A DNA stretch of 64,000 bases from an uncultured delta proteobacterium (GTDB lineage Bacteria; Desulfobacterota; Binatia; Binatales; Binataceae): positions 2,144,001 through 2,208,000 of the forward strand of contig CAWJET010000001.1 in NCBI GenBank assembly GCA_963842085.1. Direction: 5' to 3'. Below, piece after piece: positions 1-34,469 of the stretch. Under the pieces are notes generated by a model. That model was not told the DNA's origin. It saw nothing but the letters and a program-made list of their open reading frames with translations, and did not search any database. Made by a program: the position numbers and the translations under genes. Positions within the stretch are counted from its first letter, which is position 1. Each line of letters opens with the position of its first letter.

Positions 1-741
1 ACGGCGCTCAGCATCAATTGGGGAGCGTGGAGCGGATTGGGCTTCGCGGAAGCGCCGGGAGGAAAGCGCCTTGCCGCGCGCCTCGCGCTCCTCGGAATCA
101 AGAGCATCGCACCTGAGCAGGCGCTGGAAGTGATGGATCGGCTGCTCCGGCAGGGCTCGACCCAGGTCGCGGTGGTGCCCGTTGACTGGGCGCGGTATCG
201 CCAGTTCTATCCGGCGGGAACAGAGTCGCCGCTGCTGTCTGAGCTTGCACGTGAGGAAGCTGACAACTCACCGCAAGCAGGTCATCCATGCGAGAAGAGG
301 GATAGGCTCATTGCCGCAGAACCAGCGGAGCGCCTTCAGTTAGCCCTGTCCTACCTGACAGAGCTGGTGGCTCGTGTACTAGGGCAGTCCGCATCCAAGG
401 TGGACGTACAACAACCGCTGAGCACTATGGGACTGGACTCTCTGATGGCGGTCGAGTTGAAAAACCGGATCGCAGTTGACCTGGGCGTCAACCTGCCCAT
501 GGTCACCTTTCTCTCGGGACCCAGCGTCGAGCAGGCTGCGTCGCAACAGATCCTTCTACTTACATCTGAAGCTTTTGCTGTGTCAGTGCCGCTTGGCTCG
601 GTAAATGGTCACCCCCGAGGACAGCAAGGAAACGGCGGCATCGAGGAACATCTGTTGGAAAGTCTTGACCAGTATTCCGATGAGGAACTGAATTCGTTGC
701 TCACAGATCTATTGGCTAAAGAGGAAGTCAGTGAAAAGTGA
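1..741 (+). CDS. Type I PKS, C-terminal part (end of KR domain + ACP); begins upstream of the window
   Basis: Frame is open from base 1 (TALSINWGAWSG, the KR C-terminal motif); ACP motif MGLDSLMAVEL; C-terminal docking-like helix; stop overlaps the next start. Confidence 0.9.
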   Translation, partial: TALSINWGAWSGLGFAEAPGGKRLAARLALLGIKSIAPEQALEVMDRLLRQGSTQVAVVPVDWARYRQFYPAGTESPLLSELAREEADNSPQAGHPCEKRDRLIAAEPAERLQLALSYLTELVARVLGQSASKVDVQQPLSTMGLDSLMAVELKNRIAVDLGVNLPMVTFLSGPSVEQAASQQILLLTSEAFAVSVPLGSVNGHPRGQQGNGGIEEHLLESLDQYSDEELNSLLTDLLAKEEVSEK

Positions 742-15318: not shown

Positions 15319-15717
15319 CTAATGCCATGTCAGTTGATCACTCACGCCGGTGACGCCTGGTGCGGCAGCTGCAATATCGCCGGCCCGCTTGGCGTCCTCG
15401 GCCGACTTGACAACACCGCTCAACAAAATCTTGCCATGATCGCAATCGACGGCAACAAGATATCCATCGGCGACACCGTCATGCGCGAGTGCGCTCTTGA
15501 CCTCGGTGATCAGCAGATCGTCGTGCGCACGTTCCGCCGGGGAGTTGTAATGATGCTCCGCCTTGACGTTTACAGTGTCGTTCTCGCGAGTCGCGGAGTT
15601 AGAGTCCGTCGTGCCTGGTTCGGCGCGGGCATCGGCGACAAGCAGTCCGCCGCCAATCAAGACTGCGAGCGCAAGTGATGCCACGGCAGTTCTTTTTCGA
15701 TTGCGTCTATTTTGCAT
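15319..15717 (-). CDS. Secreted BON-domain protein
   Basis: Signal peptide; DDLLITEVKSAL..GKILLSGVV..GVTGVSDQL. Confidence 0.85.
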   Translation of the reverse strand: MQNRRNRKRTAVASLALAVLIGGGLLVADARAEPGTTDSNSATRENDTVNVKAEHHYNSPAERAHDDLLITEVKSALAHDGVADGYLVAVDCDHGKILLSGVVKSAEDAKRAGDIAAAAPGVTGVSDQLTWH

Positions 15718-15741
15718 CGCGGAATTCTCCCCGGTTTGCAA

Positions 15742-16032
15742 TCAGTTACTCGGGGTTACGCTTGTGGATTCGCTGTGATGAGAACTTGAGCTATCGACGG
15801 TGCCGCCAGCGCTCGACTCGCTCGAATCACGTGACTTGTCCACCGACGTGCTGGTGGTGGTGGTTGGAGGAGCCACCTGTACCGGCGGCGCCTGCACGAC
15901 GACTTGAGCCGGCGCGGCGGCGGGAACATAAGTGGTGGAGTCGACTTCCTTGGTGCTAGTGCCGCATCCGGCAACGCAAGCCAAGGCCGCAACACCGACA
16001 AAGCTGATAGCAAATCGCTGGATTGAATTCAT
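15742..16032 (-). CDS. Small Ser/Thr/Pro-rich lipoprotein
   Basis: Lipobox VAGC; paralog of 36910-37308. Confidence 0.75.
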   Translation of the reverse strand: MNSIQRFAISFVGVAALACVAGCGTSTKEVDSTTYVPAAAPAQVVVQAPPVQVAPPTTTTSTSVDKSRDSSESSAGGTVDSSSSHHSESTSVTPSN

Positions 16033-16114: not shown

Positions 16115-17261
16115 TTATTTCTTAGCTTCGCGCACCGCGCCCTCGTGCCCACCGCTTTGGTGACCACCACCCTCGTGACTCGCACTCGCCTGTCTGTGCT
16201 GTTCAGGTTGCTGGCGAGACGAGTGCTGCTCGTGAGTCGCCTGCTGATGCTGAGCCTGCTGCGGACGCGCCTGCTGCTGATGCGTAGCCTGCTGATGGCT
16301 GGCCTGCTGCTGATGAGTCGCCTGCTGCTCGGTGCGAGTAGCCCGCTGCTCGTTCTGAGTAGCCCGCTGCTGATTGTGAGTCGCCTGCTGCTGATTGCGA
16401 GTAGCCTGCTGCTCGCGCGACGCCTGCTGCTGGCGAGTCGCTTCATTGCGCTGAGTGGTTGCCGCTCTTTCATTCACGCGCGTCTGCTGCTCGCGCGACG
16501 CCTGCTGCTGGCGGCTCGCCTCGTTGCGCTGATTGGTAGCCGCCTGCTCATTCACCCGCGTTTGCTGCTCGCGCGACGCCTGCTGCTGGCGAGTCGCCAC
16601 ATTGCGCTGCTCGCTCGCCGTCCTCTCGTTGACGGCCGCCTTCTCGTTCACCTGCTTTTGCTGGTTCGAGGCCTGTTGGCGACTCTGCGCGCTACCTTCG
16701 TTCTCGGTCCGCATCACAGCCCGGTGATCATTCGGCTCCGTGTGATTCGCCCAGTTGCTGTGCTGGCTGGTCCAGTTGGGATGGTTCGCGGAAACCCAGC
16801 TCGCGTTCTGGTTGTACCACCACTGACCATTGCCAGTTGTGCTGCGCATCGTAGGCGCCGTCCGTGTCGCGCCATGCCGGATACCATGAAATCCAGTTCG
16901 GATGATTGGCGTAGAAGAAATCCGGATCGTTCTGATGCCACCAGTACGCATCTTGCCAAGTGCCATCGCTCTCGTAGTCGCCATCCTGGATGAGCCACAG
17001 GGCGTCCATGAAGCGCCATTCCGGATGATGGGCGTAGAACCACATGATGTCGTGCTGATGCCACCATCGCGCGCCTCGCCAGGTGTGAGTATTGTCATAC
17101 GCGCCCCATCCGGCTTCGCCGGGGCCGCCGTAGTAGCCGGGGCCGTTGTAGCCGGGGCCGGGACCGTATTGCGCGAATGACGGCGCTGCCATTCCGAACG
17201 CCAGGATCGCGCCGGACAAAGCAATCGTCTTTCCGAGATTTTTGATCAATTTCGTTCGCAT
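16115..17261 (-). pseudogene. Secreted protein with three Trp/His-rich repeats and a Gln-rich tail; frameshift near 16830
   Basis: Signal peptide ending SFAQ; the third repeat continues in another frame (…HNW|NGQWWYNQNASWVSANHPNW); may be a sequencing error. Confidence 0.7.
16160..16630 (-). repeat. Coding tandem repeats: three 78-nt units plus Gln-rich heptad-like units
   Basis: VNExxAxxQRNxAxRQQQASREQQxx x3, then RNQQQAT/HNQQRAT/QNEQRAT/RTEQQAT. Confidence 0.8.
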
Positions 17262-17295
17262 AAGCGGTAATGCCGTGAGACTGGGCGTCTCGTGC

Positions 17296-17420
17296 GGACC
17301 TCCTCAAGCCTTGGCAATATCGATTTGACGATGGTCTAGCGAGACGTGGTCAAAGGCGAGCGGAAAGACCACTATCGGGCTGGATCAGAGCCGGACTCGA
17401 ATCCTATATCGATTCCGACT
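17296..17420 (-). ncRNA. Candidate structured 5' leader RNA, copy A
   Basis: Near-identical to 20241-20366 apart from a 14-15 nt spacer; starts 6 nt after a -10 box; ends at GAGGAGG. Confidence 0.55.
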
Positions 17421-17425
17421 ACTTA

Positions 17426-17454
17426 ATTCTATAATAGTAGTTCCGAATTAGTAA
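17426..17454 (-). promoter_or_regulatory. Sigma70-type promoter for leader A
   Basis: TTACTA-17 bp-TAGAAT, same offset to the leader as in copy B. Confidence 0.45.
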
Positions 17455-17614
17455 CCGCAGAAACACTAATGATGTGCTCAAAAGAACGAAATACATACTC
17501 ACTTTCTGACTCTATCGGTTCTAAGCGAAATCCAAGTGGCTACTCCTGATCGATTCTACCTGCTCGAGAAGTTGCCAACGGTGTTTCCTGAATCGGCCTG
17601 GAACTCCGGGCAAG

Positions 17615-19489
17615 TTATGATTTCCGGGTTTCCGCGTTTTGGATGAGACCGCTCTGACCAGCGGTTGCCGTCCTGGTGTCGACCAATGGACGGTTGCTGC
17701 TGATTCCTGATGATCGCGAAACCGAGCGTCTAAGAGCGTATAGACGTATGGCGTGACGTACTTCGCCTCTGCTGCCGCATACTTGCGATGCACCGGCATC
17801 GAGGAGTTCTGAGCGCTGCGACAATGCGGATGCTCCGCCAGCGATGATGGTTAAGTGCGGTGACGCCGCCATCAGCGCGCGCACCAGCTCGACTGCTGCG
17901 GGCATGCACTCCGCTGTGGTGCACGAGAGAAAGACCATGTCGGGTGCGTATTGGGTTACAAAGGCACAAATCTCTGCCGGCGATTTATTTATGCCAAGAA
18001 AATTAGCGGCGCTCCCGGTCCGCCTGAGAAGTTCGAGCAGCATGAGAAGCCCGAGAGTGTGAACTTCGCCGGGCGGCACTATGCCCAGGAAGCGAAGCCG
18101 GCCTCTCAATCTGGGTTTGTCGAATCGGTCTCCGAGTTCCTTCACCAGCGCGACCGTCGTTTCGAAAACAAGGCGCTGATTCTCTTCGCTGATATGACTT
18201 TCAGACCGCTCTTCCCCGGCCAGAACGACGGCGGGGACGAGGACGTCGTCGAAGGTCGGCTCGAGACCATTTTTGTCGCAATACCCGACGGCGATCTTAC
18301 GCGCGCTCGACTGATCCAGCTCGAGCAGGCTGCGATAGTAGTCGTGATAATCTTCACGGGCGCTGTCGTCGCCGAACAGCACGGCGAAGAAACCAAGTGC
18401 GGGAATATAGTCACCCGCGACCTTAAGGCACGCGGTCAAGGAGGTGGCGAGCAAGAGTCCCGGAAGTCCCCACAGCCACCCCCAGAACATCGCGGAGAAC
18501 AACAGGCCAAGCGGCGACAGACCAATTCCGCGACCGATTAAAAAAGGCTCGATCAGGTAGCCCACGATTTGATCGAGAATGACGAACGAGGCAAAGACTT
18601 CGACTGATTCACTCCATCCGGGAGAGACCGCAAAGGCTACAAACATCGGCAGTAGAGCGGCAACCGGAACGCCGACGTACGGAACGAAACGAAACAGCGC
18701 TGCCAAAGAACCCCACAGAATTGGGTTCGGCAACCCGATCATCCACATAGTCAATCCTATCGCAACTCCGTATCCAAGATTAGTCAGAGCGAATAGCAAC
18801 AGGTAATGACCAACTGCTTCACCCGCTGCCCCAATCGCCTCGGCCGAAAGCGTAATTCGCCCCCGTGCCGCAAGCCGCACCAGCCGATCACGCAAATCGG
18901 TTCGGCCATAAAGTAGAAAGAACATCAGCACCATGACCAGCAGCGCTTCGAGCAGGCCTGACAAGATTGGGACAACCGGCTTCTCGGCCTGTTCCAGGTA
19001 CGACGGCTCGGCCGGCGTCTGAACGACACTGGTGGCTTTTGAGACCTTTGGTCGCGGCGTCAGGTCGCTGATCTGCTGCTCGACGTCCTTGATTCCATAC
19101 TGTACCCGCAGCATCCACTCGGGCGTGCTACCTTCCAACGCGCTCAACTTAGTAGCGATGTTGTTGGTGTAATCGGTAACCTGAACGGCGACAGAGGTAA
19201 GCTCGACCGTTACGAAATAGCCAATACCGATAACAATTGCGATTGCCGTTACCACAACCAGCGCAGCGCTGACAAAGGTTCCAACCAAACGATCCAGCCG
19301 GCTCGCAATCGGACTGAAAATGACGGCCAGCAACGCAGCCATCGTCAACGGCATCAAGATGCTTTTCGCGAAATACAGAACCACGGTCGCAAGGACTACC
19401 GCGACAACCGGTCCCGCAGAACTCCCGCCGTCCGGGTGTTCATCATGCTCGTGCTCGAGAATGAGCGGACTCGTCGAGGATTCTTCCAC
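17615..19489 (-). CDS. AI-2E family transporter fused to a C-terminal cobalamin-binding-like domain
   Basis: Multi-TM region with RFVPYVG, IEPFLIG, WGWLWGLPGLLLA; C-terminal GEVHTLG, FLG, PDMVFLS, IIAGG. Confidence 0.8.
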   Translation of the reverse strand: MEESSTSPLILEHEHDEHPDGGSSAGPVVAVVLATVVLYFAKSILMPLTMAALLAVIFSPIASRLDRLVGTFVSAALVVVTAIAIVIGIGYFVTVELTSVAVQVTDYTNNIATKLSALEGSTPEWMLRVQYGIKDVEQQISDLTPRPKVSKATSVVQTPAEPSYLEQAEKPVVPILSGLLEALLVMVLMFFLLYGRTDLRDRLVRLAARGRITLSAEAIGAAGEAVGHYLLLFALTNLGYGVAIGLTMWMIGLPNPILWGSLAALFRFVPYVGVPVAALLPMFVAFAVSPGWSESVEVFASFVILDQIVGYLIEPFLIGRGIGLSPLGLLFSAMFWGWLWGLPGLLLATSLTACLKVAGDYIPALGFFAVLFGDDSAREDYHDYYRSLLELDQSSARKIAVGYCDKNGLEPTFDDVLVPAVVLAGEERSESHISEENQRLVFETTVALVKELGDRFDKPRLRGRLRFLGIVPPGEVHTLGLLMLLELLRRTGSAANFLGINKSPAEICAFVTQYAPDMVFLSCTTAECMPAAVELVRALMAASPHLTIIAGGASALSQRSELLDAGASQVCGSRGEVRHAIRLYALRRSVSRSSGISSNRPLVDTRTATAGQSGLIQNAETRKS

Positions 19490-19555
19490 AATTGTCCTCC
19501 GGTCAGTAATCAGCCCAGCCAGAGTCCACAGATGAAGCCGACAAATTGAGCCGGC

Positions 19556-19780
19556 CTACCCTTTCTGATACAGGCCGCCTGCCACTAGAACCATCCCGAC
19601 GATTAGTGCCGCCCCACTGAGAATGGGCGGTATTGCGTGTGAGATTGGCTCGTTCGCTTGAATTTTGAGATCGCCAAGCGTGACAACGTTCTTCGTCTGA
19701 TTCGTGGTGAACACCGGCGACGCAATCGCAGGGAGGCCAAGCAACGCGAGAATTGCGCCGATCATTACTATGGGTTTCAT
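19556..19780 (-). CDS. Small 2-TM membrane protein (DUF3185-like)
   Basis: Two hydrophobic segments around VVTLGDLKI and IPPILSG. Confidence 0.7.
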   Translation of the reverse strand: MKPIVMIGAILALLGLPAIASPVFTTNQTKNVVTLGDLKIQANEPISHAIPPILSGAALIVGMVLVAGGLYQKG

Positions 19781-19847
19781 TTTCTCTCCGACTCGAACTT
19801 CGTCAACGTAATGATCAGCTATTGGCTCGCGGTGAATTCGCGCTTAT

Positions 19848-20237
19848 TCATCCGGCTGCCTTGGTTGCTAGTGCGAGACGGCCCCAAACTGTCCTTCCTG
19901 AGTCTGCCAGCATTTTTCCGGCAGCATCCACAACCAACGCGGCCAACGCGAAAACAAACAAAGACAGTATAACCGCCAATCGCACTTCGCTCCAGGCCAC
20001 AGTCACGGCGAGACTTCCGATCTGTCCCGATTGCAAGTGCCGCCCCGTTTGCGAGTCCACGACAAACACGCTCACCGGATTTATCACGTGTGACAAGAAA
20101 GTGAGGTATAGCCAGTACACGTCCACGATCACAAATCCGCACAAAATGCTAAATCGCGAAAGGCCCTTGCTTGACGTTAAATTCATACTCGACTCCAAAC
20201 GGATCAAGTCGGACAGGCTTTCAGCCGAGCTCTCCAT
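19848..20237 (-). CDS. Hypothetical 2-TM protein downstream of leader B
   Basis: ATG 6 nt after GAGGAGG; two hydrophobic stretches. Confidence 0.6.
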   Translation of the reverse strand: MESSAESLSDLIRLESSMNLTSSKGLSRFSILCGFVIVDVYWLYLTFLSHVINPVSVFVVDSQTGRHLQSGQIGSLAVTVAWSEVRLAVILSLFVFALAALVVDAAGKMLADSGRTVWGRLALATKAAG

Positions 20238-20240
20238 AAA

Positions 20241-20366
20241 GGACCTCCTCGAGCCTTGATTCTTTAATCATTTACGATGGTCTAGCGGAACGTGGTCGAA
20301 GGCGAGCGAAAGGCCACTGTCGGGCTGGATCAGAGTCGGAACTCGAATCCTATACCGATTCCGACT
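20241..20366 (-). ncRNA. Candidate structured 5' leader RNA, copy B
   Basis: Homologous to 17296-17420; 5' hairpin AGUCGGAAUCG/CGAGUUCCGACU with a loop containing AGGA. Confidence 0.55.
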
Positions 20367-20371
20367 AGTTG

Positions 20372-20400
20372 ATAGTACACTTAGTTATTTGGAGTGTCAC
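20372..20400 (-). promoter_or_regulatory. Sigma70-type promoter for leader B
   Basis: GTGACA-17 bp-TACTAT in an AT-rich intergenic region. Confidence 0.6.
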
Positions 20401-20497
20401 AATGAATAATTTATATAGTATAACTTCGGTGCCCGTGAGAACAAAACAACTGAATATACTCGGGTACTCATTTTACTATCTTCGACGATTCATCAAA

Positions 20498-23400
20498 TCA
20501 GCCAAGTATAATTCGCACTCGATGGGTGGCGCTGTCATCGGCGAGGGCGATTTGCGCCGGGCGTACTACCAGCGCCTTGCCGTCGAGCTCCATGCTGGTC
20601 ACTCCGCGGCTGACGCCGCGCGGGTTTTCGACCGCGATTTCGTAACGCGTTGCGCCGTATCGATAGACAATCTCGAAGCCCGGCCACTTTGTCGGGATGC
20701 ACGGATCGATCACCAGCGTTTTACCGCGAAGCCGAAAGCCCAATATCCACTCGAGGCCCGCGCGATACATCCATCCCGCGGAGCCGGTGTACCAGGTCCA
20801 TCCGCCGCGCCCGACGTGCGGCGGCATCGAGTACACGTCGGCGCACGCCACGTACGGCTCGACTTTGTAGCGATGGATCCCGGCGCGCGTGTTCGCGTGA
20901 TTGATCGGATTCAGTAGTGAGAACAGTTCGCCCGCCTTGTCACCGTCACCGAGCATCGAAAACGCGATCACCGACCATAGCGCGCCGTGCGTGTATTGGC
21001 CGCCGTTCTCCCTGATGCCGGGCGGATAGCCCTTGATGTAGCCGGGATCGAGCGGGGTGTGATCGAACGGCGGCGTGAACAGCAGCACCAGGCCGTCTTC
21101 GCGTTTGACCAGGTATTCGTCAACGGCCGCCATCGCGGTCTTAGCGTGGAGCGGACTCGCGGCGCCGGAGATTACACTCCACGACTGCGCGATCGAATCG
21201 ATGCGGCATTCGATGTTGCCAGCCGAGCCGAGCGGCGTGCCGTCATCGAAGTACCCGCGCCGATACCAGTTGCCGTCCCATCCTTCGCGCTCGAGCGATC
21301 CCGCGAGTGCCGTTGCGTGACTCCTCCAGGTCGCAGCGCACGCATCCTCGCGCCGGACATCCGCCAACGGTGCGAATGCCTGGAGCGTCGTGTAGAGGAA
21401 CCATCCGAGCCAGATGCTCTCGCCCTTGCCTGCCTCGCCGACGCGGTTCATGCCGTCGTTCCAATCGCCCGACCCGAACAGCGGAATTCCGTGGACGCCG
21501 ACCGCGAGGCTTTGGTCGAGTCCAAGAGCGCAATGCTCGAAGATTGTCCGGCACTGATCGGAGACCGTCGGCTGAAAAAACGATTCAACCTCGCCGGGAG
21601 GCAGCTCCGGACCGTCAAGGAAAGGGACAGTTTCCTCGAGGATACCGAGGTCGCCTGTCACCTCTATGTAGTGAGCGACCGCGTACGCGAGCCAGACGCG
21701 ATCGTCCGCGATACGGGTGCGAACGCCCTGTCCCGCGGGCGGAAGCCACCAATGCTGCACGTCGCCGGCAACGAACTGGCGCGAGGCCGCCCGAATCAGT
21801 TGTTCCCGCGTGAGCGCCGGCTGTGCCACCGTCAGCGCCATCACGTCCTGGAGCTGATCGCGAAAGCCGTACGCGCCTCCCGCCTGGTAGAAGGCGGACC
21901 GGGCCCAGAGGCGGCACGCCACAGTCTGATAGAGCAGCCATCGGTTGAGCATAATGTCCATCGAACGGTCCGGAGTCTTGACCTGAACGGCGCCAAGCAA
22001 GTCGTCCCAGTAGCGCGTGACTGCTGCCAAAGCCGAGTCGTGATCGGCGTCGCGATATTTTCTGATTGTGGCAATCGCTTCCGCCCTGCTCGCCGCCTCG
22101 CCGAGAAAGAAGGCGACCTCGGTCATGGCGTTAGGCCTGAGCGTTAGCCTGGTTTGCAGCGCGGCGCACGGATCGAGCGCGGCTCCCGCCTTGGCGGACA
22201 GCGGCTTTCCGTTCGCGAGCGCAGCGGGGTTGTCAAGCGTTCCGTTGCGGCCGAGAAATCCGGTTCTGTCCGCGGTCCACGAGCTTTGCTGGCCGCTCAA
22301 ATCCGCGAATGCGATCCGGTTTCCGTAGTCGATGCTGAAGGAGTTGCGCACGAGTACCGCGTGAGTTTCGGGCTCGATCTCGGAGACGATGTACGGGGCG
22401 GAGGCGCCGCGCGAAGTGCCGAGCACCCATTCCACGTAAGCAGTCACCGACAAACGCCGCGCGCGCGGTGAGAGATTTCGAATCATCAACCGCGAAATCT
22501 TGACTGAGCCGTCCAGCGGCACGTACTGCGTCAGCTCGAGTGAAATTCCGTGCGAGGTGTGCTCGAAGACGCTGTAGCCGTGGCCGTGTCGAACGACGTA
22601 TGGCGCCACATCTTCGCGTATCGGCAGCGCGGTCGGTCCCCACAGCTCACCGGTATCCAGGTCGTGAACGTAGAGCACCTCGCCGGGACGGTCGCTCACC
22701 GGATCGTTCGACCATTGCGTAATCTGATGCTGCTGGCTGTTGATTGCCCACGTGTAGCCGCCGCCCTCGACCGAAACCTGGAAGCCGAACGACGGATTCG
22801 CGATCACGTTGATCCACGGCGCCGGTGTCCATTGCCCCTCGCCGAGAATCGTTACGTACTCACTGCCGTCGGCGGCAAATCCTCCAAGGCCGTTGAAAAA
22901 CTCGATCTGTCGACGCGGCATCGACAACGCCGCGCGTTGTATCGCGGGTGTTCGCCGCGGCGGCGGGCCTGCAGCCGGCTCGAACACCTCCAGCCGTTTG
23001 ACCTGCTCGGACAAGGTCCCGCGCCGGCTCAGCAACACCGCTCGCGCCACGGTCTGCAGAACACTTCGCAGCTCGGCCGACACCAGGTCGGCGCGCAGCA
23101 CGAACACATTTCCGCATGCGCCTTGCCCGTCGGGCGCTCGCGCCGGGGTGGTCCGAACAAGGGCCTCGAGCGCGATTTGCAGGTCCTGATCGTATGACGG
23201 GGGCCGCTCGTTCAGGATCACCAAATCGACGCACAGCCGCTTCATCCGCCAATATTCATGGGCCCGCACCAGCTCGCGCACGATCTCCATATCGGAGGTC
23301 TCGTCGATCCGAACCAGCACGATAGGCAGGTCGCCGGAAATCCCGGCGGGCCACAGCTTCGACTGTCCGCCCTCGCCGCGCCGCAACAGGTCGGACGAAG

Positions 23401-26400
23401 GCCGCAACGTCGGGTCCGAGTAGAGCACGCGATTGGCGATGCGCTGGAAAAGATGCGCTTCCTCGGCGTCAACGCGCAGGTGATGGAGCTGCACCTGCGC
23501 CTGCGTCCACGCCAGCGTCACGGCGCGTTCGAAAGCGTTGGAGTCGTGATGCTTGTCGACCAGGTCGAGTGCTTCGGTCCGCGACGGCGCGACGATAGTC
23601 CAGAACGCGACGCGCGCGGTTGCTCCCGCCGCAATGCGCAGCCGGCGGCGGACGCTGAAGATCGGATCGAGAACGGCGCCAACAGTATCCGACAGCGGCC
23701 GCCCGTCGATAACCGAAACGGCGTCGCGGAGCTCGCGCCCGCGCCCGAGAAATCGCGCGCGGTCGGTCTCGAACTGTATCTCGCCGACAGACTCGCCCTC
23801 GGCCACCGCCAGGTGCGCCGCCCACACCGGCACCTCGGTAGGCGAGCGGAGCCGCCGCGTCGCCAGTAGCGCTCCAACCTCGGCGTCAAATTCCGTCTGC
23901 ACGAACATCTTGGAGAAGGCCGGATGCGCAGTATCCGACGCTGTGGACGCCAGCACGATCTCGGCGTACGAGGTCACCTCGACCTCGCGCACGCGGCTGC
24001 CGAGATTCGAAATGGAGACGCGCCGCACTTCGGCGTCGTCCTCGGGTGATACCGCGACTTCGAGCGTAGTCGTCACAGTGCCGTCGCGCCGCACGATTTC
24101 CGCGCGGTCCTCGGAGAACTCGACTTCGTAGCTGTCCGCCTCGACGCCGGCCGGCTGAAACCCCGCCGACCAGACCTTGCCGCTCTGCACATCGCGGACG
24201 AAGATGTACGTCCCCCACGAATCGCAGGTGACATCCTCGCGCCATCGCGTGACCGCCAGGTCGCGCCAGCGGCTGAAGCCCGAGCCGGCCGCCGTGATCA
24301 TCACGGTGTACTTGCCGTTAGATAGAAGATGCGTGCGCGGGATCAGATCGTGCGGCGAATGGAACCGGCGAACTGTCGGCGGAGCGCTTTCGCGAACATT
24401 GGCTTCCGCCTTGACCTCCTCGGCCCGCGGGCGCGCCACCGCTACATCGCGCGGTGTCCGCTCCTGGAGCAGCAGCTCGGTCGCCTGGATGATGGGCTCG
24501 GCGTGAAACCGCGCGCGCATCGCGCCGTCGTTCAGCGCGTCGGCAATCGCAACCAGCGTCATGCCTTGGTGATGCGCCATGTACGCACGCACCACAGCGA
24601 CGTTCTCGCCTTCGGGCACCCGCGACGGCGTATAGTCCAACGCTTCATACCAGCCGAAGTGGCCGAGGCCGCCTGCGGCGAACAGCCGCGAGAAGTTTTG
24701 CGCCGCGGCCTCCGGATTGACCATCGCCGCCAGCGCCGTCGCATAGGGTGCGATCACCGCGTTCTCGCTCAGCCCGCGCTTCAGTCCGAGTCCGGGCACG
24801 CCGAAGTTCGAGTACTGATAAGTGAGCTCGAGATCGCGCGCGTTGTAGGCAGATTCCGAAATTCCCCATGGCACGCCAAGCTCGGCGCCGTACTTCATCT
24901 GGCGGCGCACCACCAGCCTATTCGTCTGATCGAGCAGGCTGCCGACCGGCGCGCGCATCACCAGCGACGGCATCAGGTACTCGAACATCGAGCCCGACCA
25001 CGAAATCAGCGCCGAGCCTCGATCGACCGGCGTCATCCCGCGTCCCAACCGAAACCAGTGCCGCGACGGCACCTCCCCCTTAGCAATCGCGACGAAGCTC
25101 GCCAGCCGCGCCTCCGACGCAAGTAAGTCGTAGCAGTTGGAGTCCAGACTGCCGTCCGTGACGCGGTAGCCAATTGAAAGGAGTTGGCGCGCGGGATCGA
25201 GCAGGAAGTCGAACTTCATCGCGTCAAGCATCCTGCTCGCGACCGCCGCGAGTTCCGTCAGCCGCCGCTCGAGTGCTTTGGCCGCGTCGCTCGCACGCGC
25301 GCAGGCAGCTTGATTGAGCGTCGAGTCCCGGCTCGCCGCATCATTATATAGGTCCGGCAAGTCGCCCAGCTTAGGTATCGATTCGAGCTGCGTCGAGCTG
25401 ACATCGAGCGCGCCCGTCTTGACCCGAGCGCGCAACGCCCACGGCTTGAGCAACTCGACGTCGCGTTGATGACTGCGGATGCACGATCGCAGCGCCTCCG
25501 CCCATGCGAGCACGTCGCTGGCCGCGGAGTCCGCGCGCTCCAGCGTCAAGGCGCGCGCGATATCGGTGGCCGAATCGCTGTGAGCCGCGAGCTCCGTCAG
25601 CCACGCCGTCATTTCCACCACGGTCCGCGGCTCCGACTGCGTCAACGGCGCCATGGTGTCGAGCACTTCCTCGAGCTGCTTGGGCGTGACGGTGTAGCTG
25701 CGCCGGTCGGTGCCCAGCGCCGCCAGCGACTCGCGCACCAGCGCCATCGAGTCTTCGATTCCCTTTAGCCAATTCGGGTCCACCGCCGGCCGCGCGATCA
25801 TTTCGCGGCACGCGTTGCCCAGCGCGATCAGATGCCCCGCCAGGTTGCCGCTGTCCACCGACGACACGTACTTCGGATCCAGCGGCCGCAGGTCGCGCGT
25901 GCCGTACCAGTTGTAGAAATGCCCGCGGAACCGCTCCATCCGCTTCATCGTGTCGAAGGTCGCGCCCAGCCGCTCGACCGTCTCATGCGTTCCGAGCCAG
26001 CCGAAGTCGTGCGCCGCGATAATCGACAGCAGGTACAGCCCAAGGTTGGTGGGCGACGTCCGATGGGCCAGCGCGGGCTTGGGGTCTTCCTGAAAATTGT
26101 CGGGCGGCACCGCGTTGTCTTCCGCCGTCACGAACGTCTCGAAAAATCGCCAGGTGCGTCGCGCGGTCAGGCGCAGCGCCCTGATGTCGGCAAGGGAAAG
26201 CACCTTGGCGCCCTCGAGCGGCGGCGGCAGACTCGCCCATCGCGCGACGTCCGGCGACACCATCCACAAAATCATGAACGGAACTGCGATTGCGGTGCCA
26301 CCGCGGCTTGCCGACGCGACGACGATTGCGGCCGCGACCGCCAGTGCCCAGGCTCCCGCCATCATGCCGTAAAACCCGCGCACGTCGGGACGAGTCGCGC

Positions 26401-29308
26401 CCTTCGCCTGCGCCGCGGTCGTCCACTCGAGCATCAGCCTATGACTGACGTACAAGCGGTAGAGGGTGCGCGAAATCGCGTCGCACATCAGCCACGCTTG
26501 ATGTGCGAGCAGGGTCAGCATCATCGCAAGCTGTGAGAGCCCCGCCAGCAAATCCTTGCCGACGGCGAGGATGTGGCTGCGCTTGGAGATGTCGCGGCGG
26601 CGGGGGATGATTCCGGTGACGAACGGGAGCATCGGCGCCGTCGCGATCGTCGCGCCGATGAACGCGGTCCAGATCGCGGCGCCAGCTAACGGCAGCGTCC
26701 AGCCCGCGACAAGTGCGAGCAAAGTGATTGGCGCCGAGAGCGTACGGCGCAGGTTGTCGATCATTTTCCAGCGCCCGAGCGGCGGCATCGACGAGCGGCC
26801 GTCGCGCCCTTGCGAGGTAGTTGCGCCCGCGTCGGAATCATGCGGACGGCCTAAAATCCACGGCAGCAGTTGCCAGTCACCGCGCGCCCATCGATGCTGT
26901 CTGCCGGCGGCAACGTCGTAGCGCGACGGAAACTCCTCGACCAGCTCGATGTCGGAGACCAGTCCCGCGCGCGCGAAAGTTCCTTCGAAAAGATCGTGGC
27001 TCAGAAGCGTGTTGTCAGGAACGCGGCCCGCCAGCGCCGCCTCGAACACGTCTACATCGTAAATCCCTTTGCCGCTGTACGAACCTTCATCGAGGAGATC
27101 CTGGTAAACGTCGGAAACGGCGAACGCGTAAGGATCGATTCCGGCGGCGCTCGAGAAGGTGCGCTGGAAGACCGAGCCGTCGCGCCCGGTCGGCAGTGAC
27201 CCCGTGATTCGCGGCTGAAGAACTCCGTGTCCTTCGATCACGCGGCCGAGTTGCTTGTCGAATCGGGGCGCGTTCAGCGGATGCGCCATTTTGCCGACCA
27301 TGCGCTTGGCGGCGCCGCGCGGCAGGCGCGTGTCGGCGTCGAGCGTGATCACGTAGCGCACTCCGTCGGGGACTGCGGACGCGCCTCCATCCTGCGCAAT
27401 GAACGTGGTATCGGTCCCGCCGCGCAGCATCCGATTCAGCTCATGCAGCTTGCCGCGTTTGCGCTCCCAACCCATCCACACGCCCTCGGCTTCGTCCCAC
27501 ACGCGCCTGCGATGGAGCAGCAAAAATCTCGCGCCGGCAGGTGCCGCTCCGTGACGCTGATTCAGCCGCGCGATTCCCGCCGCCGCTGCCGCCAGCAAGT
27601 CGTCGTCGCCGGGTGCGGTTTCGGTCGCCGAGTCGGTCCAGTCCGACAGCAACGCAAAGTACAGCTCCCCGTCCGGACTTGCCAGGTAATGAACCTCGAG
27701 CCGCTCGATCTGCTCGTCGATCTCGGCGCGCGTAGTCAACAGGGTCGGCATCACGACCATCGTGCGCAGGCTCGCCAGCACGCCATCATGAAGCTCAAGT
27801 GCGGGAATCGTGTTGGGACCGATGATGGTCGTAACGGCGCGATTGACCAGCGCCACCGCCGCATCCATCGCCGGAATGATCGCGACCATCGCGAGGATGA
27901 ACCGAGTCCATCCGCCGACGTGCGCATCCGCAATCGCGAGCAGGCCGCACGCGACGATGATTGCCGTGACCACCGCGATCGTACCCAGGTATCCCTTGAT
28001 TCCGGCCGCCGCGTTGGCGCGAGCTATCCAGTCGCGAACTGGCGCACGAAATCCCAGCTTCGCTTCGAGCGCGTGACGCCCCTCTGAAATGAGGTAGTAG
28101 CCCGGATGATGCTCGCGACGCGCCACCACGCCGTCGCCATTTGGCAGTTCGGACGCCGCTCCCTTGGCCGCGGCAATCGCGCTTTGCGCGACCTCGACTT
28201 CGGTGTGCCCTGAACCTCGCGCGAGTTCCTCGATCGCGTGCCGATAGCTATCGCGCGTAGCGAAATCCATCGCCGCGAAGTCGCTGTCGGCGCGCAGTAC
28301 TGCATCGACCGCGCTCACGCTCTCGAAGAAATCCGCCCATTCGACCGCCGACATCAGGCCCATACTCGTGATCACGTTGCGCACCGTCACGTTCATCGCG
28401 CCCTGCCCCTGATGCACTTCGCGGACGATTTCGTCGGCGGTAGTGCCCTCCGCCGCCAGCCGCTGATCCAGCCACTCGAGCGCCGGCGTAACCTTGGGAC
28501 CCTGATCGCGCAGTCGTTGAACCATCTGCACCGCGAATGCCGCCGGAACAGGTGAGCGATCAAAATCCTTGAACACGACCTCAGCCGGTTCCGCGTCGCG
28601 GCCATTTGCTCCGAGCAGCCGGTCCGCCACCAAGTCGGCGCTCTGGCGTTCGGCACGGCCGCGGCCAATCTCTTCAGCCGCGCGGCGCAGGTTTTCGACC
28701 AGCACGATCCGAAGCGTAATCGCGACCGCCCACAACTCGCCGATCGTCAGCGGCTGCACGCGCTGGTAGGCCTGCACGAACCTGGACAGCGTCTGCGTAT
28801 GGAAGTAGCTGTCGGTATGCGCGACGTAGGCCCACGCGATCCCGAACACGCGCGGATATCCTTCCAGCGGACCCTCAGCCAGCTTGGGCAGTTGACGATA
28901 GAATCCGCGCGGCAGGTCGTCGCGAATTTCGCGAATCTGCTCTTCGACGACGTGAAAATTGTCGACCAGCCACTCCGCCGCGGGCGTGATCGCGCGCTCC
29001 TCCCGGATCGCGCCCGCGATGCTGCGATATGCCTCCAACAACACACGCCCATTCTCGCTGACGCGCGGCGCCATTGGCCTCCCGAGCCCCGGACGGTCCG
29101 TCACGCGCTGAGCAACTGCCAGCGACTCGCCATGCTGCTCCAGGCGCTCGACGCTGAACAATTCGGCACGGATCGGTTCTTCCGTGTGCGCGAAACCGGG
29201 CGGAGGTGCTTTACGCGCACGGAGAAATAACAGACTCAAACTTGCCTCTCGATCCGGGCGACCGGGTACGGGATGAAATAAACGCGAACTGCGCAGAGTG
29301 AAGGGCAC
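20498..29308 (-). CDS. ndvB: Cyclic beta-1,2-glucan synthase (Cgs/NdvB/ChvB; GT84 + GH94-like)
   Basis: 2936 aa; GWERKRGKL, TLDADT, LLSHDLFEG, HRWARGDWQL, SWSGSMFEYLMP, GFRDQLQD, GDWNDGMN, RENGGQYTH. Confidence 0.95.
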   Translation of the reverse strand: MPFTLRSSRLFHPVPGRPDREASLSLLFLRARKAPPPGFAHTEEPIRAELFSVERLEQHGESLAVAQRVTDRPGLGRPMAPRVSENGRVLLEAYRSIAGAIREERAITPAAEWLVDNFHVVEEQIREIRDDLPRGFYRQLPKLAEGPLEGYPRVFGIAWAYVAHTDSYFHTQTLSRFVQAYQRVQPLTIGELWAVAITLRIVLVENLRRAAEEIGRGRAERQSADLVADRLLGANGRDAEPAEVVFKDFDRSPVPAAFAVQMVQRLRDQGPKVTPALEWLDQRLAAEGTTADEIVREVHQGQGAMNVTVRNVITSMGLMSAVEWADFFESVSAVDAVLRADSDFAAMDFATRDSYRHAIEELARGSGHTEVEVAQSAIAAAKGAASELPNGDGVVARREHHPGYYLISEGRHALEAKLGFRAPVRDWIARANAAAGIKGYLGTIAVVTAIIVACGLLAIADAHVGGWTRFILAMVAIIPAMDAAVALVNRAVTTIIGPNTIPALELHDGVLASLRTMVVMPTLLTTRAEIDEQIERLEVHYLASPDGELYFALLSDWTDSATETAPGDDDLLAAAAAGIARLNQRHGAAPAGARFLLLHRRRVWDEAEGVWMGWERKRGKLHELNRMLRGGTDTTFIAQDGGASAVPDGVRYVITLDADTRLPRGAAKRMVGKMAHPLNAPRFDKQLGRVIEGHGVLQPRITGSLPTGRDGSVFQRTFSSAAGIDPYAFAVSDVYQDLLDEGSYSGKGIYDVDVFEAALAGRVPDNTLLSHDLFEGTFARAGLVSDIELVEEFPSRYDVAAGRQHRWARGDWQLLPWILGRPHDSDAGATTSQGRDGRSSMPPLGRWKMIDNLRRTLSAPITLLALVAGWTLPLAGAAIWTAFIGATIATAPMLPFVTGIIPRRRDISKRSHILAVGKDLLAGLSQLAMMLTLLAHQAWLMCDAISRTLYRLYVSHRLMLEWTTAAQAKGATRPDVRGFYGMMAGAWALAVAAAIVVASASRGGTAIAVPFMILWMVSPDVARWASLPPPLEGAKVLSLADIRALRLTARRTWRFFETFVTAEDNAVPPDNFQEDPKPALAHRTSPTNLGLYLLSIIAAHDFGWLGTHETVERLGATFDTMKRMERFRGHFYNWYGTRDLRPLDPKYVSSVDSGNLAGHLIALGNACREMIARPAVDPNWLKGIEDSMALVRESLAALGTDRRSYTVTPKQLEEVLDTMAPLTQSEPRTVVEMTAWLTELAAHSDSATDIARALTLERADSAASDVLAWAEALRSCIRSHQRDVELLKPWALRARVKTGALDVSSTQLESIPKLGDLPDLYNDAASRDSTLNQAACARASDAAKALERRLTELAAVASRMLDAMKFDFLLDPARQLLSIGYRVTDGSLDSNCYDLLASEARLASFVAIAKGEVPSRHWFRLGRGMTPVDRGSALISWSGSMFEYLMPSLVMRAPVGSLLDQTNRLVVRRQMKYGAELGVPWGISESAYNARDLELTYQYSNFGVPGLGLKRGLSENAVIAPYATALAAMVNPEAAAQNFSRLFAAGGLGHFGWYEALDYTPSRVPEGENVAVVRAYMAHHQGMTLVAIADALNDGAMRARFHAEPIIQATELLLQERTPRDVAVARPRAEEVKAEANVRESAPPTVRRFHSPHDLIPRTHLLSNGKYTVMITAAGSGFSRWRDLAVTRWREDVTCDSWGTYIFVRDVQSGKVWSAGFQPAGVEADSYEVEFSEDRAEIVRRDGTVTTTLEVAVSPEDDAEVRRVSISNLGSRVREVEVTSYAEIVLASTASDTAHPAFSKMFVQTEFDAEVGALLATRRLRSPTEVPVWAAHLAVAEGESVGEIQFETDRARFLGRGRELRDAVSVIDGRPLSDTVGAVLDPIFSVRRRLRIAAGATARVAFWTIVAPSRTEALDLVDKHHDSNAFERAVTLAWTQAQVQLHHLRVDAEEAHLFQRIANRVLYSDPTLRPSSDLLRRGEGGQSKLWPAGISGDLPIVLVRIDETSDMEIVRELVRAHEYWRMKRLCVDLVILNERPPSYDQDLQIALEALVRTTPARAPDGQGACGNVFVLRADLVSAELRSVLQTVARAVLLSRRGTLSEQVKRLEVFEPAAGPPPRRTPAIQRAALSMPRRQIEFFNGLGGFAADGSEYVTILGEGQWTPAPWINVIANPSFGFQVSVEGGGYTWAINSQQHQITQWSNDPVSDRPGEVLYVHDLDTGELWGPTALPIREDVAPYVVRHGHGYSVFEHTSHGISLELTQYVPLDGSVKISRLMIRNLSPRARRLSVTAYVEWVLGTSRGASAPYIVSEIEPETHAVLVRNSFSIDYGNRIAFADLSGQQSSWTADRTGFLGRNGTLDNPAALANGKPLSAKAGAALDPCAALQTRLTLRPNAMTEVAFFLGEAASRAEAIATIRKYRDADHDSALAAVTRYWDDLLGAVQVKTPDRSMDIMLNRWLLYQTVACRLWARSAFYQAGGAYGFRDQLQDVMALTVAQPALTREQLIRAASRQFVAGDVQHWWLPPAGQGVRTRIADDRVWLAYAVAHYIEVTGDLGILEETVPFLDGPELPPGEVESFFQPTVSDQCRTIFEHCALGLDQSLAVGVHGIPLFGSGDWNDGMNRVGEAGKGESIWLGWFLYTTLQAFAPLADVRREDACAATWRSHATALAGSLEREGWDGNWYRRGYFDDGTPLGSAGNIECRIDSIAQSWSVISGAASPLHAKTAMAAVDEYLVKREDGLVLLFTPPFDHTPLDPGYIKGYPPGIRENGGQYTHGALWSVIAFSMLGDGDKAGELFSLLNPINHANTRAGIHRYKVEPYVACADVYSMPPHVGRGGWTWYTGSAGWMYRAGLEWILGFRLRGKTLVIDPCIPTKWPGFEIVYRYGATRYEIAVENPRGVSRGVTSMELDGKALVVRPAQIALADDSATHRVRIILG

Positions 29309-29789: not shown

Positions 29790-29865
29790 TGGTGGAGCAG
29801 AAGGGATTTGAACCCTCGACCCCTACGTTGCGAACGTAGTGCTCTCCCAGCTGAGCTACTGCCCC
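29790..29865 (-). tRNA. tRNA-Ala(CGC)
   Basis: GGGGCAGTAGCTCAGCTGGGAGAGC...CTACG-TTCGCAA-CGTAG...GGTTCAAATCC...CCA, 76 nt. Confidence 0.97.
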
Positions 29866-34377: not shown

Positions 34378-34469
34378 GGAGAGGTGGCCGAGCCCGGTTT
34401 AAGGCGCACGCCTGGAACGCGTGTAGACTCGAAAGGGTCTCGGGGGTTCGAATCCCCCCCTCTCCGCCA
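34378..34469 (+). tRNA. tRNA-Ser(GGA)
   Basis: GGAGAGGTGGCCGAG...CACGC-CTGGAAC-GCGTG, long variable arm, GGTTCGAATCC, CCA. Confidence 0.97.

Follow-up and report, generated by a model that had tools for sequence, protein, structure and literature searches.

We analyzed a window of 64,000 nucleotides (nt) from an uncultured delta proteobacterium of the family Binataceae (assembly GCA_963842085.1, contig CAWJET010000001.1, positions 2,144,001 to 2,208,000). An earlier note had pointed there to two minus-strand copies of a structured 5′ leader of about 125 nt that ends in a Shine-Dalgarno sequence. Both copies, designated A and B, were confirmed from the sequence, by a repeat search and by BLASTN. 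With the whole genome as target, BLASTN returned copy B as a match to copy A with 85% identity over 129 nt (E 1.5e-32), and the repeat search revealed three blocks (families D5, D8 and D10) in register between the two copies and 88–91% identical; the similarity is far beyond chance. In each copy a diverged spacer of 14–15 nt separates two conserved blocks, and AAGGCU(Y)GAGGAGG forms the 3′ end. Coordinates of the copies, their parts and the surrounding genes are collected in Table 1. Element positions are numbered on copy A; beyond the spacer the consensus numbering is one higher.

Table 1. Leader copies, their parts, predicted promoters and nearby genes (window positions unless a contig is named; aa, amino acids; ORF, open reading frame; RBS, ribosome-binding site)
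Feature	Coordinates	Strand	Remarks
Leader copy A	17296..17420	-	125 nt; predicted transcript start to 3 nt beyond the Shine-Dalgarno sequence; covariance model R1, 132.7 bits
5′-terminal hairpin P1/P1b, copy A	17388..17420	-	positions 1-33
Nearly invariant core, copy A	17329..17387	-	positions 34-92
Core segments, copy A	17387-17379; 17372-17367; 17357-17353; 17351-17346; 17340-17332	-	UGAUCCAGC; GUGGUC; GCCUU; GACCAC; GCUAGACCA; read from the sequence
Anti-RBS strand, copy A	17353..17372	-	positions 49-68; complementary to the AAGGC..GAGGAGGUCC block
Variable spacer, copy A	17313..17328	-	positions 93-108
RBS block, copy A	17299..17312	-	AAGGC 17312-17308; Shine-Dalgarno GAGGAGG 17305-17299
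Stretch 3′ of the Shine-Dalgarno sequence, copy A	17262..17295	-	ATG position reads ACG; from alignments
Predicted promoter, copy A	17426..17454	-	-35 TTACTA 17454-17449, 17-nt spacer, -10 TAGAAT 17431-17426; read by eye
Leader copy B	20241..20366	-	126 nt; covariance model R1, 122.2 bits
Core segments, copy B	20332-20324; 20317-20312; 20303-20299; 20297-20292; 20286-20278	-	UGAUCCAGC; GUGGCC; GCCUU; GACCAC; GCUAGACCA; from the sequence
RBS block segments, copy B	20257-20253; 20250-20244	-	AAGGC; GAGGAGG; from the sequence
Predicted promoter, copy B	20372..20400	-	GTGACA-17-TACTAT, 9/12 matches (promoter scan); ends 5 nt before the element
Gene behind copy A	16115..17261	-	secreted protein, Trp/His-rich repeats, Gln-rich tail; ORFs 16728-17261 and 16115-17224
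Likely further genes, copy A unit	15742-16032; 15319-15741	-	Thr-rich lipoprotein-like ORF; BON-domain protein (Pfam E 5.2e-12)
Gene behind copy B	19848..20237	-	129-aa predicted membrane protein; cluster of ~130-aa proteins
Likely further genes, copy B unit	19556-19780; 17615-19489	-	74-aa membrane protein; AI-2E-family transporter fused to B12-binding domain
Tandem repeats	16209-16639		periods 15-78 nt, CTGCTG-rich on + strand; encode the Gln-rich tail of the copy A protein
Gene directly upstream of copy B	20498-29308	-	2936-aa protein
tRNA gene	29793-29865	-	Rfam match
tRNA gene	34378-34466	+	Rfam match
Third clear copy in the genome	C1:538155-538282	+	BLASTN; 4.7 kb from the fourth
Fourth clear copy in the genome	C1:542849-542962	-	BLASTN; 4.7 kb from the third
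Fifth, divergent copy	G000:C2:1545821-1545941 (L169:1501-1621)	-	covariance model, 26 bits

The two copies are real, and they are not the only ones. They belong to a family with hundreds of members across the Binataceae; in the present genome, 100% complete with 4.93 Mb on 2 contigs, four copies are clear and one is divergent. Within the genus, 20 of 24 genomes gave 1–11 copies each by BLASTN, and 16 genomes that represent ten further families of the class gave none. A sequence-pattern scan across species-representative genomes yielded at least 118 stretches, nearly all from metagenome-assembled genomes labeled Candidatus Binatus, Binataceae or 'uncultured delta proteobacterium'; at seven of its loci (L050, L062, L101, L108, L114, L136 and L160) the element is absent, and these chance matches of the 19 specified bases were excluded. 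A collection made with nhmmer holds 154 copies at 50 bits or more, 132 of them unique. Covariance model R1 (54 sequences, 124 positions) was run on draws of genomes, which are samples and whose members are kin. It matched 78 of 150 other Binataceae genomes from 17 of 30 genera, with 1–12 matches each and 322 in total; one match each comes from the unpublished genomes G375 and G351, without which the tally is 76 of 148. In a draw from the class, 10 of 17 genomes of the family matched and 0 of 133 genomes of 18 other families, and in a draw of 150 genomes from the phylum there was one marginal match (26.7 bits). In the fifth copy the 5′ hairpin is intact and CCCUUC, CUAGACCA and GGCUUGAGG are kept; a TTGACT promoter box of its own precedes it, and 8 nt beyond a Shine-Dalgarno-like GGCGGGAG comes an ATG.

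The element had been called unrecognized, and the database searches agree. At gathering scores, Rfam 15 (4227 models) matched only the two tRNAs in the whole window; at E up to 10, three chance-level matches were obtained within 17000-20700, none overlapping copy A or B. The plasmid and phage collections held no similar DNA (BLASTN). A sample of titles and abstract openings from the Binatota, Binatia and Binatus literature contains nothing on RNA elements, and no literature was found for Binatota together with riboswitch. Judged from sequence, the element is probably an undescribed cis-regulatory leader family, new to the databases searched.

The element begins at a predicted transcript start, because −10 and −35 boxes stand at a fixed distance in front of it. 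Of the 132 unique copies, 93 have a TANNNT box that begins 11–13 nt upstream of position 1, and 83 have a TTGAC-like box that begins 34–36 nt upstream. Copy A has its −10 box at the modal position, 11 nt upstream, as do 57 copies altogether. In line with the earlier description, the promoters of copies A and B differ, and their −10 boxes, TAGAAT and TACTAT, lie at the same distance. The promoter of copy A was missed by the consensus scan because its −35 box matches 3 of 6 bases. Downstream sequence of 400 nt or more is available for 127 copies, and 118 of them keep AAGGC and the Shine-Dalgarno sequence at the 3′ end. Among those 118 copies, a start codon follows 3–7 nt behind the Shine-Dalgarno sequence in 75 (ATG in 67), and 110 face a same-strand ORF that is 60 aa or longer and no more than 150 nt away. 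The proposed extent, from transcript start to Shine-Dalgarno sequence, fits these predictions, and the orientation relative to genes is not random. A miniature mobile repeat, such as a miniature inverted-repeat transposable element or a repetitive extragenic palindrome, was rejected on the gene-facing orientation (110/118), the fixed promoter distance and the lack of plasmid or phage matches.

In copy B the ATG lies 6 nt behind GAGGAGG, 3 nt beyond the last base of the element. In copy A the first gene-opening ATG, at 17261, is 38 nt past the Shine-Dalgarno sequence, a distance the earlier note had remarked on. Copies of this type keep the stretch behind the Shine-Dalgarno sequence, with ACG or GCG at the ATG position and the real start about 38 nt further on; from the alignments, the stretch in copy A is a relic of the start codon and first codons present in other copies. 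A GAGAC/GUCUC hairpin between the Shine-Dalgarno sequence of copy A and the real ATG is possible in constrained folds and might have a function.

The proteins encoded behind copies A and B are unrelated (BLASTP E 0.78), as had been claimed, and at least ten unrelated protein clusters stand behind the 132 unique copies. Secreted Trp/His-rich repeat proteins follow 51 copies; they are either long with a Gln-rich tail (copy-A type) or short, about 128 aa. Membrane proteins of about 130 aa (copy-B type) follow 31 copies, hydrophobic ORFs of 21–23 aa follow 9 and proteins of 92 aa follow 8. Glycine-zipper proteins (a weak Pfam match, E 1.8e-4, below the curated cut-off) and BON-domain, OsmY-like proteins (E 2.1e-14) are found behind 4 copies each and Thr-rich lipoprotein-like ORFs behind 2. 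Single copies precede, among others, CsbD (E 4.9e-13), DUF4142 (E 2.6e-20) and RRM (E 5.7e-23) proteins. Neither Pfam nor NCBIfam has a family for the Trp/His-rich, ~130-aa, 92-aa, 151-aa or ~75-aa downstream proteins, and the ESM Atlas gave nothing usable for the two main ones. The recognizable members are classic general-stress and osmotic-stress proteins and the rest are lineage-specific, in keeping with the suggested tie to stress and envelope genes. From their same-strand order, the further genes of both units in the window are likely cotranscribed with copies A and B; genes of the Thr-rich lipoprotein-like and BON kinds carry a leader of their own in other genomes. In several genomes leader-bearing units cluster within a few kb (for example G009:C4 303–346 kb, G012:C6 388–404 kb, G263:C1 1764–1770 kb, G279:C3 78–83 kb; compare both pairs in the present genome), which suggests stress-gene islands.

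Next, conservation was followed along the aligned copies as the frequency of the major base. It is 0.74–0.94 in the stems of the hairpin (1–33) and 0.72 in its loop (13–20). Within the core it is 0.98 in UGAUCCAGC (34–42), 0.78 in a variable stretch (43–48), 0.93 in GUGGYC (49–54), 0.84 in the CUUCCGCUC-like segment (55–63), 1.00 in GCCUU (64–68), 0.99 in GACCAC (70–75), 0.81 in a second variable stretch (76–80) and 0.99 in GCUAGACCA (81–89). The spacer (about 90–108) falls to 0.55, AAGGC (109–113) stands at 0.98 and the Shine-Dalgarno sequence (116–122) at 0.83. Mean pairwise identity by region was determined for 25 copy-A-type loci. It is 0.89 in the hairpin, 0.91 in the core (34–92), 0.86 in the RBS block and 0.72 in the stretch behind the Shine-Dalgarno sequence, where neutral stretches have 0.45–0.57; the spacer gives 0.57, the promoter spacer 0.56 and the DNA further upstream 0.44, and codon positions 1, 2 and 3 of the gene give 0.70, 0.69 and 0.53. 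Since core identity exceeds that of all three codon positions, the leader is more constrained than the protein behind it. To judge from these identities the element is under strong purifying selection, which had been argued from the conservation on both sides of the diverged spacer.

In a FastTree tree of leader positions 1–92 from 109 labeled copies, the downstream gene family changes 18 times, with a minimum of 7 and with 57–71 changes for shuffled labels; the labels are shared among kin, and the comparison shows association, not independence. Given 18 changes against 57–71, leader and gene have mostly stayed together, and the element is not a repeat of recent spread. For many copies, sequence similarity extends over the first dozen codons as well.

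These observations bear on a fixed, non-switching cassette of promoter, stabilizing hairpin, strong Shine-Dalgarno sequence and, often, the first dozen codons, reused for high, stable expression. It has been described that non-homologous genes can have similar upstream regions (Promoter reuse in prokaryotes, PMC3575422), and the element resembles such reused or 'mobile' promoters in that highly similar DNA precedes non-homologous genes, both inside one genome and across related ones. A cassette would also account for a conserved unit that enters the coding region, where three unrelated protein clusters have similar N-terminal peptides of the type M-x-R-P-R...P-I-R-N, and the 5′ hairpin is the only well-supported structure. 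It leaves unexplained why a weakly structured core of 59 nt is kept at 0.91 while the promoter itself drifts to 0.55–0.68, and why a 20-nt strand is complementary to the Shine-Dalgarno region. Unlike in reused promoters, the promoter hexamers are the least conserved part here and the transcribed leader the most, and leaders have co-diverged with gene families; because they track those families (18 against 57–71 changes), the conservation is old and not a trace of recent copying. Nor do the plasmid and phage collections hold a copy. We consider a cassette of this kind rather unlikely.

The 5′ hairpin is real: it covaries and is unusually stable. The two substitutions between copies A and B in this hairpin, an A-U pair becoming G-U and a U-G pair becoming U-A, preserve pairing as first described, and seven of its ten pairs show two-sided changes in the family; pair 3–30, for example, is UA in 73 copies, UG in 24 and CG in 23. 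Its G-U pairs are specific to the sense strand, being A-C on the other. Over 131 copies the mean z score against shuffles is −3.2, with 80% of the copies below −2, and mean pair probabilities are 0.35–0.68. A T-arm-like GGA/UCC pairing inside the hairpin was dropped by eye, position 17 varying without compensation. A leader peptide or small ORF in the core was likewise dropped by eye, as TAG and TGA stops occur along the core and single-base indels between copies. Neither leader contains a U-rich terminator; the four terminator-like sites all lie outside copies A and B.

We then considered an extended model with the hairpin, P3 (34–42/81–89), P2 (49–54/70–75) and pairing of 55–68 with the RBS block. 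Standard pairs fill 93.9% of its cells, compared with 29–44% when partners are slid, and 12 pairs change on both sides, compared with 7.0 ± 1.1 in shuffled controls, none of 500 of which reached 12. Nearly all of this two-sided signal stems from the hairpin. Three mismatches are never repaired to G-C: A36-C87 in 127 of 131 copies, C39-A84 in 117 and C53-A71 in 92 (U-A in 28). GACCA at 85–91 is mostly unpaired in the predicted ensemble (0.1–0.4). In the model alignment the fifth copy of the genome lacks both proposed P3 strands, which is suggestive and a single case.

Positions 49–68 are complementary over about 20 nt, an internal loop included, to the AAGGC..GAGGAGGUCC block, and this complementarity to the RBS region, proposed in the earlier note, is real and beats shuffled controls. 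When the RBS strand was taken without AAGGC, its best partner was leader window 49–63, at a mean of −11.0 kcal/mol; non-overlapping windows gave −3 to −7.5 and partly overlapping ones up to −10.7 kcal/mol. A shuffled RBS strand gave −8.0 kcal/mol against the native −11.0, the native energy being lower in 115 of 131 copies. With both pentamers included (49–69 against 108–130, RNAduplex), the energy was −18.5 kcal/mol versus −13.2 for a shuffled partner, the native energy being the lower one in 127 of 131 copies. GCCUU pairs with AAGGC at a mean probability of 0.37–0.48; the Shine-Dalgarno sequence has a mean predicted pairing of 0.5–0.8, and its helix with the masking strand is imperfect. The Shine-Dalgarno variants GAGGAGG, GAGGGAG and GCGGAGG represent one-sided changes relative to the CUUCC/U-rich partner that leave 94% of cells paired. 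The first codons form a second, weaker partner of the Shine-Dalgarno sequence (−10.2 versus −8.6 kcal/mol shuffled, lower in 88 of 131). Mean fold energies were −42.8 kcal/mol with RBS pairing enforced, −39.6 with P2 and P3 enforced and −44.7 without constraint. For copy A the two constrained folds are isoenergetic, at −46.8 (RBS-paired) and −46.7 kcal/mol (P2 and P3).

On balance we favor, with modest confidence, the reading of the element as a cis-acting 5′ leader that masks the RBS of envelope and general-stress mRNAs in Binataceae. We infer transcription from the predicted start, masking in vivo and any switching. Hairpins at the 5′ end are known to stabilize transcripts, and the stable hairpin 1–33 would open this one and may protect its 5′ end. 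The pyrimidine-rich strand 49–68, with CUUCC and the invariant GCCUU, would pair with AAGGC and the Shine-Dalgarno sequence some 45 nt downstream and so mask the RBS by default; in many copies the first codons may serve as the second Shine-Dalgarno partner. Nascent RNA could start open and close later, because transcription would finish P2 and P3 before it reaches the RBS strand. Formation of the mask would be decided by the core, which is invariant, C-rich and weakly structured and would act as sensor or docking site. This core contains three GA(U)CCA words, GAUCCAG in 111 of 131 copies, GACCACG in 106 and GACCAAC in 77 (plus 32), two of which could pair with the 5′ end of the masking strand.

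Several points weigh against masking. Columns of P2, P3 and GCCUU/AAGGC are almost invariant and thus untested by covariation, a single P2 pair being compensated in 3 of 131 sequences. The mean z score is +0.17 for the core (34–92) and 0.01 for the whole leader (1–128) against mononucleotide shuffles, and RNAalifold on 131 copies retains only 11 pairs at −6.9 kcal/mol. The shuffle controls for folding and RBS pairing preserve mononucleotide content only. There is no co-evolution of masking strand and RBS, since native partners give −11.0 and swapped ones −11.4 kcal/mol, with native lower in 60 of 131. Counts over copies overstate independence because the copies are kin, and the transcript start and the leader itself are predictions. 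In copy-A-type leaders no start codon stands behind the Shine-Dalgarno sequence, which a simple masking model does not explain. We regard the regulatory reading as plausible and mechanistically specific, and as unproven.

As the core is near-invariant yet folds no better than shuffles, it is conserved as sequence. An invariant sequence that lacks RNA stability would also be expected if the core acted as DNA, a transcription-factor platform in the initially transcribed region working as a roadblock or activator site, and the three similar words GAUCCAG, GACCACG and GACCAAC could be TGA(T)CCA-like half-sites. The words, however, start 35 and 15 nt apart, spacings that match no helical repeat, and dyad symmetry is absent from the core. 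The element is strictly gene-oriented and ends in an RBS, the G-U pairs of the hairpin are specific to the sense strand, and complementarity to the RBS has no rationale in DNA. A role as a DNA site is very improbable.

The same segments can be read as a true riboswitch, in which a pseudoknotted aptamer of P3, P2 and GCCUU/AAGGC binds a small molecule, ion or second messenger, and ligand binding decides whether the rest of the loop extends the pairing over the Shine-Dalgarno sequence. The geometry fits an H-type pseudoknot, with stem 49–54/70–75, a 9-nt loop, five GCCUU/AAGGC base pairs and a 1-nt junction. Both pentamers are essentially invariant (1.00 and 0.98), and the conserved, unrepaired mismatches A36-C87 and C39-A84 point to something beyond plain helical pairing. 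Invariant helix sequences are known from small pseudoknot riboswitches, and one leader before many unrelated genes would suit a global signal. Covariation had been proposed as the check. It supports the hairpin but barely the supposed aptamer, with one pair in 3 sequences, and decides neither for nor against a riboswitch: no covarying aptamer helices were found among 131 copies, a comparison of low power in which the strands hardly vary. The supposed aptamer is no more stable than shuffles, and its conserved helix strands and variable loops are the reverse of the usual aptamer pattern. The element is confined to one family (0 of 133 class genomes outside it and one marginal match in 150 phylum genomes), and nowhere among the genes served does a transporter or a metabolic gene suggest a ligand. 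We regard a riboswitch as quite unlikely, a minority possibility. A wider version of this idea, that the leader is a new class of sensor RNA whose pseudoknot (P3, P2 and GCCUU/AAGGC) and never-repaired A-C mismatches sense a global cue directly, seems to us unlikely. The cue could be a second messenger, an ion, or proton concentration or temperature read through the A-C mismatches. If this were true, the RNA would be a master post-transcriptional switch of a stress and envelope regulon in bacteria that have neither CsrA nor Hfq.

For the masking leader, our ranking of possible triggers puts a trans-acting RNA-binding protein first, a physical cue next and a small ligand last, because the core is constrained in sequence, has little structure and occurs in a single family. 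As for RNA-binding proteins, the genome encodes four with an RRM and three with a cold-shock domain, and none of these genes adjoins a copy. It has no match to CsrA (PF02599), for which control genomes do match, and none to Hfq (PF17209), and it is 100% complete. CsrA and Hfq are excluded as partners since neither gene is present. The CsrA-like AGGA loop of the earlier note therefore fails: besides the missing gene, GGA occurs in the P1b hairpin loop of only 53 of 131 copies. A CsrA/RsmA target leader was rejected on both counts, and an Hfq-dependent leader activated by a small RNA, of the rpoS type, was rejected for want of an Hfq gene. No exact sense or antisense match longer than 15 nt to any leader was found elsewhere in the genome, a search that leaves room for short seeds of small RNAs; matches of 12–15 nt look like chance.

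Among known systems, the element most likely works like the leaders that mask a Shine-Dalgarno sequence, such as translational riboswitch platforms, ROSE and fourU thermometers and the rpoS leader, an analogy based on the upstream pyrimidine-rich strand, the imperfect pairing and the position as 5′ leader of stress genes. It differs from them in having no Rfam match and in being common to at least ten unrelated gene families, and from RNA thermometers also in its much greater length and 59-nt invariant core. The pseudoknot riboswitches SAM-II, SAM-V and preQ1 include the Shine-Dalgarno region. The element resembles such RNAs in that the 3′ strand of its possible H-type pseudoknot ends two bases before the Shine-Dalgarno sequence and its helix strands are invariant; it differs in having no sequence or model match, covariation or ligand-related genes, and in being found in one family only. 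With CsrA/RsmA leaders it shares the AGGA in the hairpin loop of copies A and B and the GGA inside the Shine-Dalgarno sequence, but its invariant parts are C-rich and not GGA motifs. The cspA-type cold-shock genes and the cyanobacterial genes for RRM proteins have conserved long 5′ leaders. The likeness, with no sequence relation seen, is a long conserved leader across several stress genes, and one copy of the element precedes an RRM gene; those leaders, however, serve paralogous genes and the element unrelated ones. A type I toxin leader was also compared; it would call for a small hydrophobic toxin ORF, and hydrophobic ORFs of 21–23 aa follow just 9 of the 132 copies.

Binataceae are abundant uncultured bacteria of soil and peat, and the element-carrying genomes derive, according to their titles, from such habitats. 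The transcription units marked by the leader, as many as a dozen in one genome, mix recognizable stress proteins with families restricted to the lineage, which provides a functional context for unknown proteins. An RNA of 125 nt is a compact, testable case for post-transcriptional coordination of stress genes in the absence of CsrA and Hfq. A core that turned out to be a sensor would define a new class of regulatory RNA, and one that serves as a docking site for a protein would lead to the regulator.

A few minor features of individual loci were recorded. The promoters at L032 and L040-L046, which serve genes for ~133-aa proteins, have a near-perfect palindrome of the type ACTAGTAAATTACTAGT between −35 and −10; a transcription factor that controls some of these genes might use it as an operator. 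The promoters of the two copies in the window do not have this palindrome. The 21–23-aa ORFs (L038, L063, L077, L083, L092, L102, L125, L143 and L158) start with M-Y-L-P-I-S-L-G and could encode small membrane peptides or toxin-like peptides. Degenerate remnants of the same ORF precede the 92-aa gene of eight other copies.

In the window, the gene behind copy A is split over two frames, with residues 1–146 of an ortholog matched in one and 131–334 in the next (tblastn). The switch lies near 16830-16860, and relatives have a single ORF of 300–415 aa; the split may reflect a pseudogene, an error of assembly or a programmed frameshift. The transporter gene of the copy B unit combines an AI-2E_transport domain (Pfam E 4.7e-43) with a C-terminal B12-binding domain (E 7.1e-15), an unusual fusion. 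The 2936-aa protein encoded directly upstream of copy B contains GH94 supersandwich, GH94 catalytic and glucoamylase domains, an architecture known from cyclic beta-1,2-glucan synthases.

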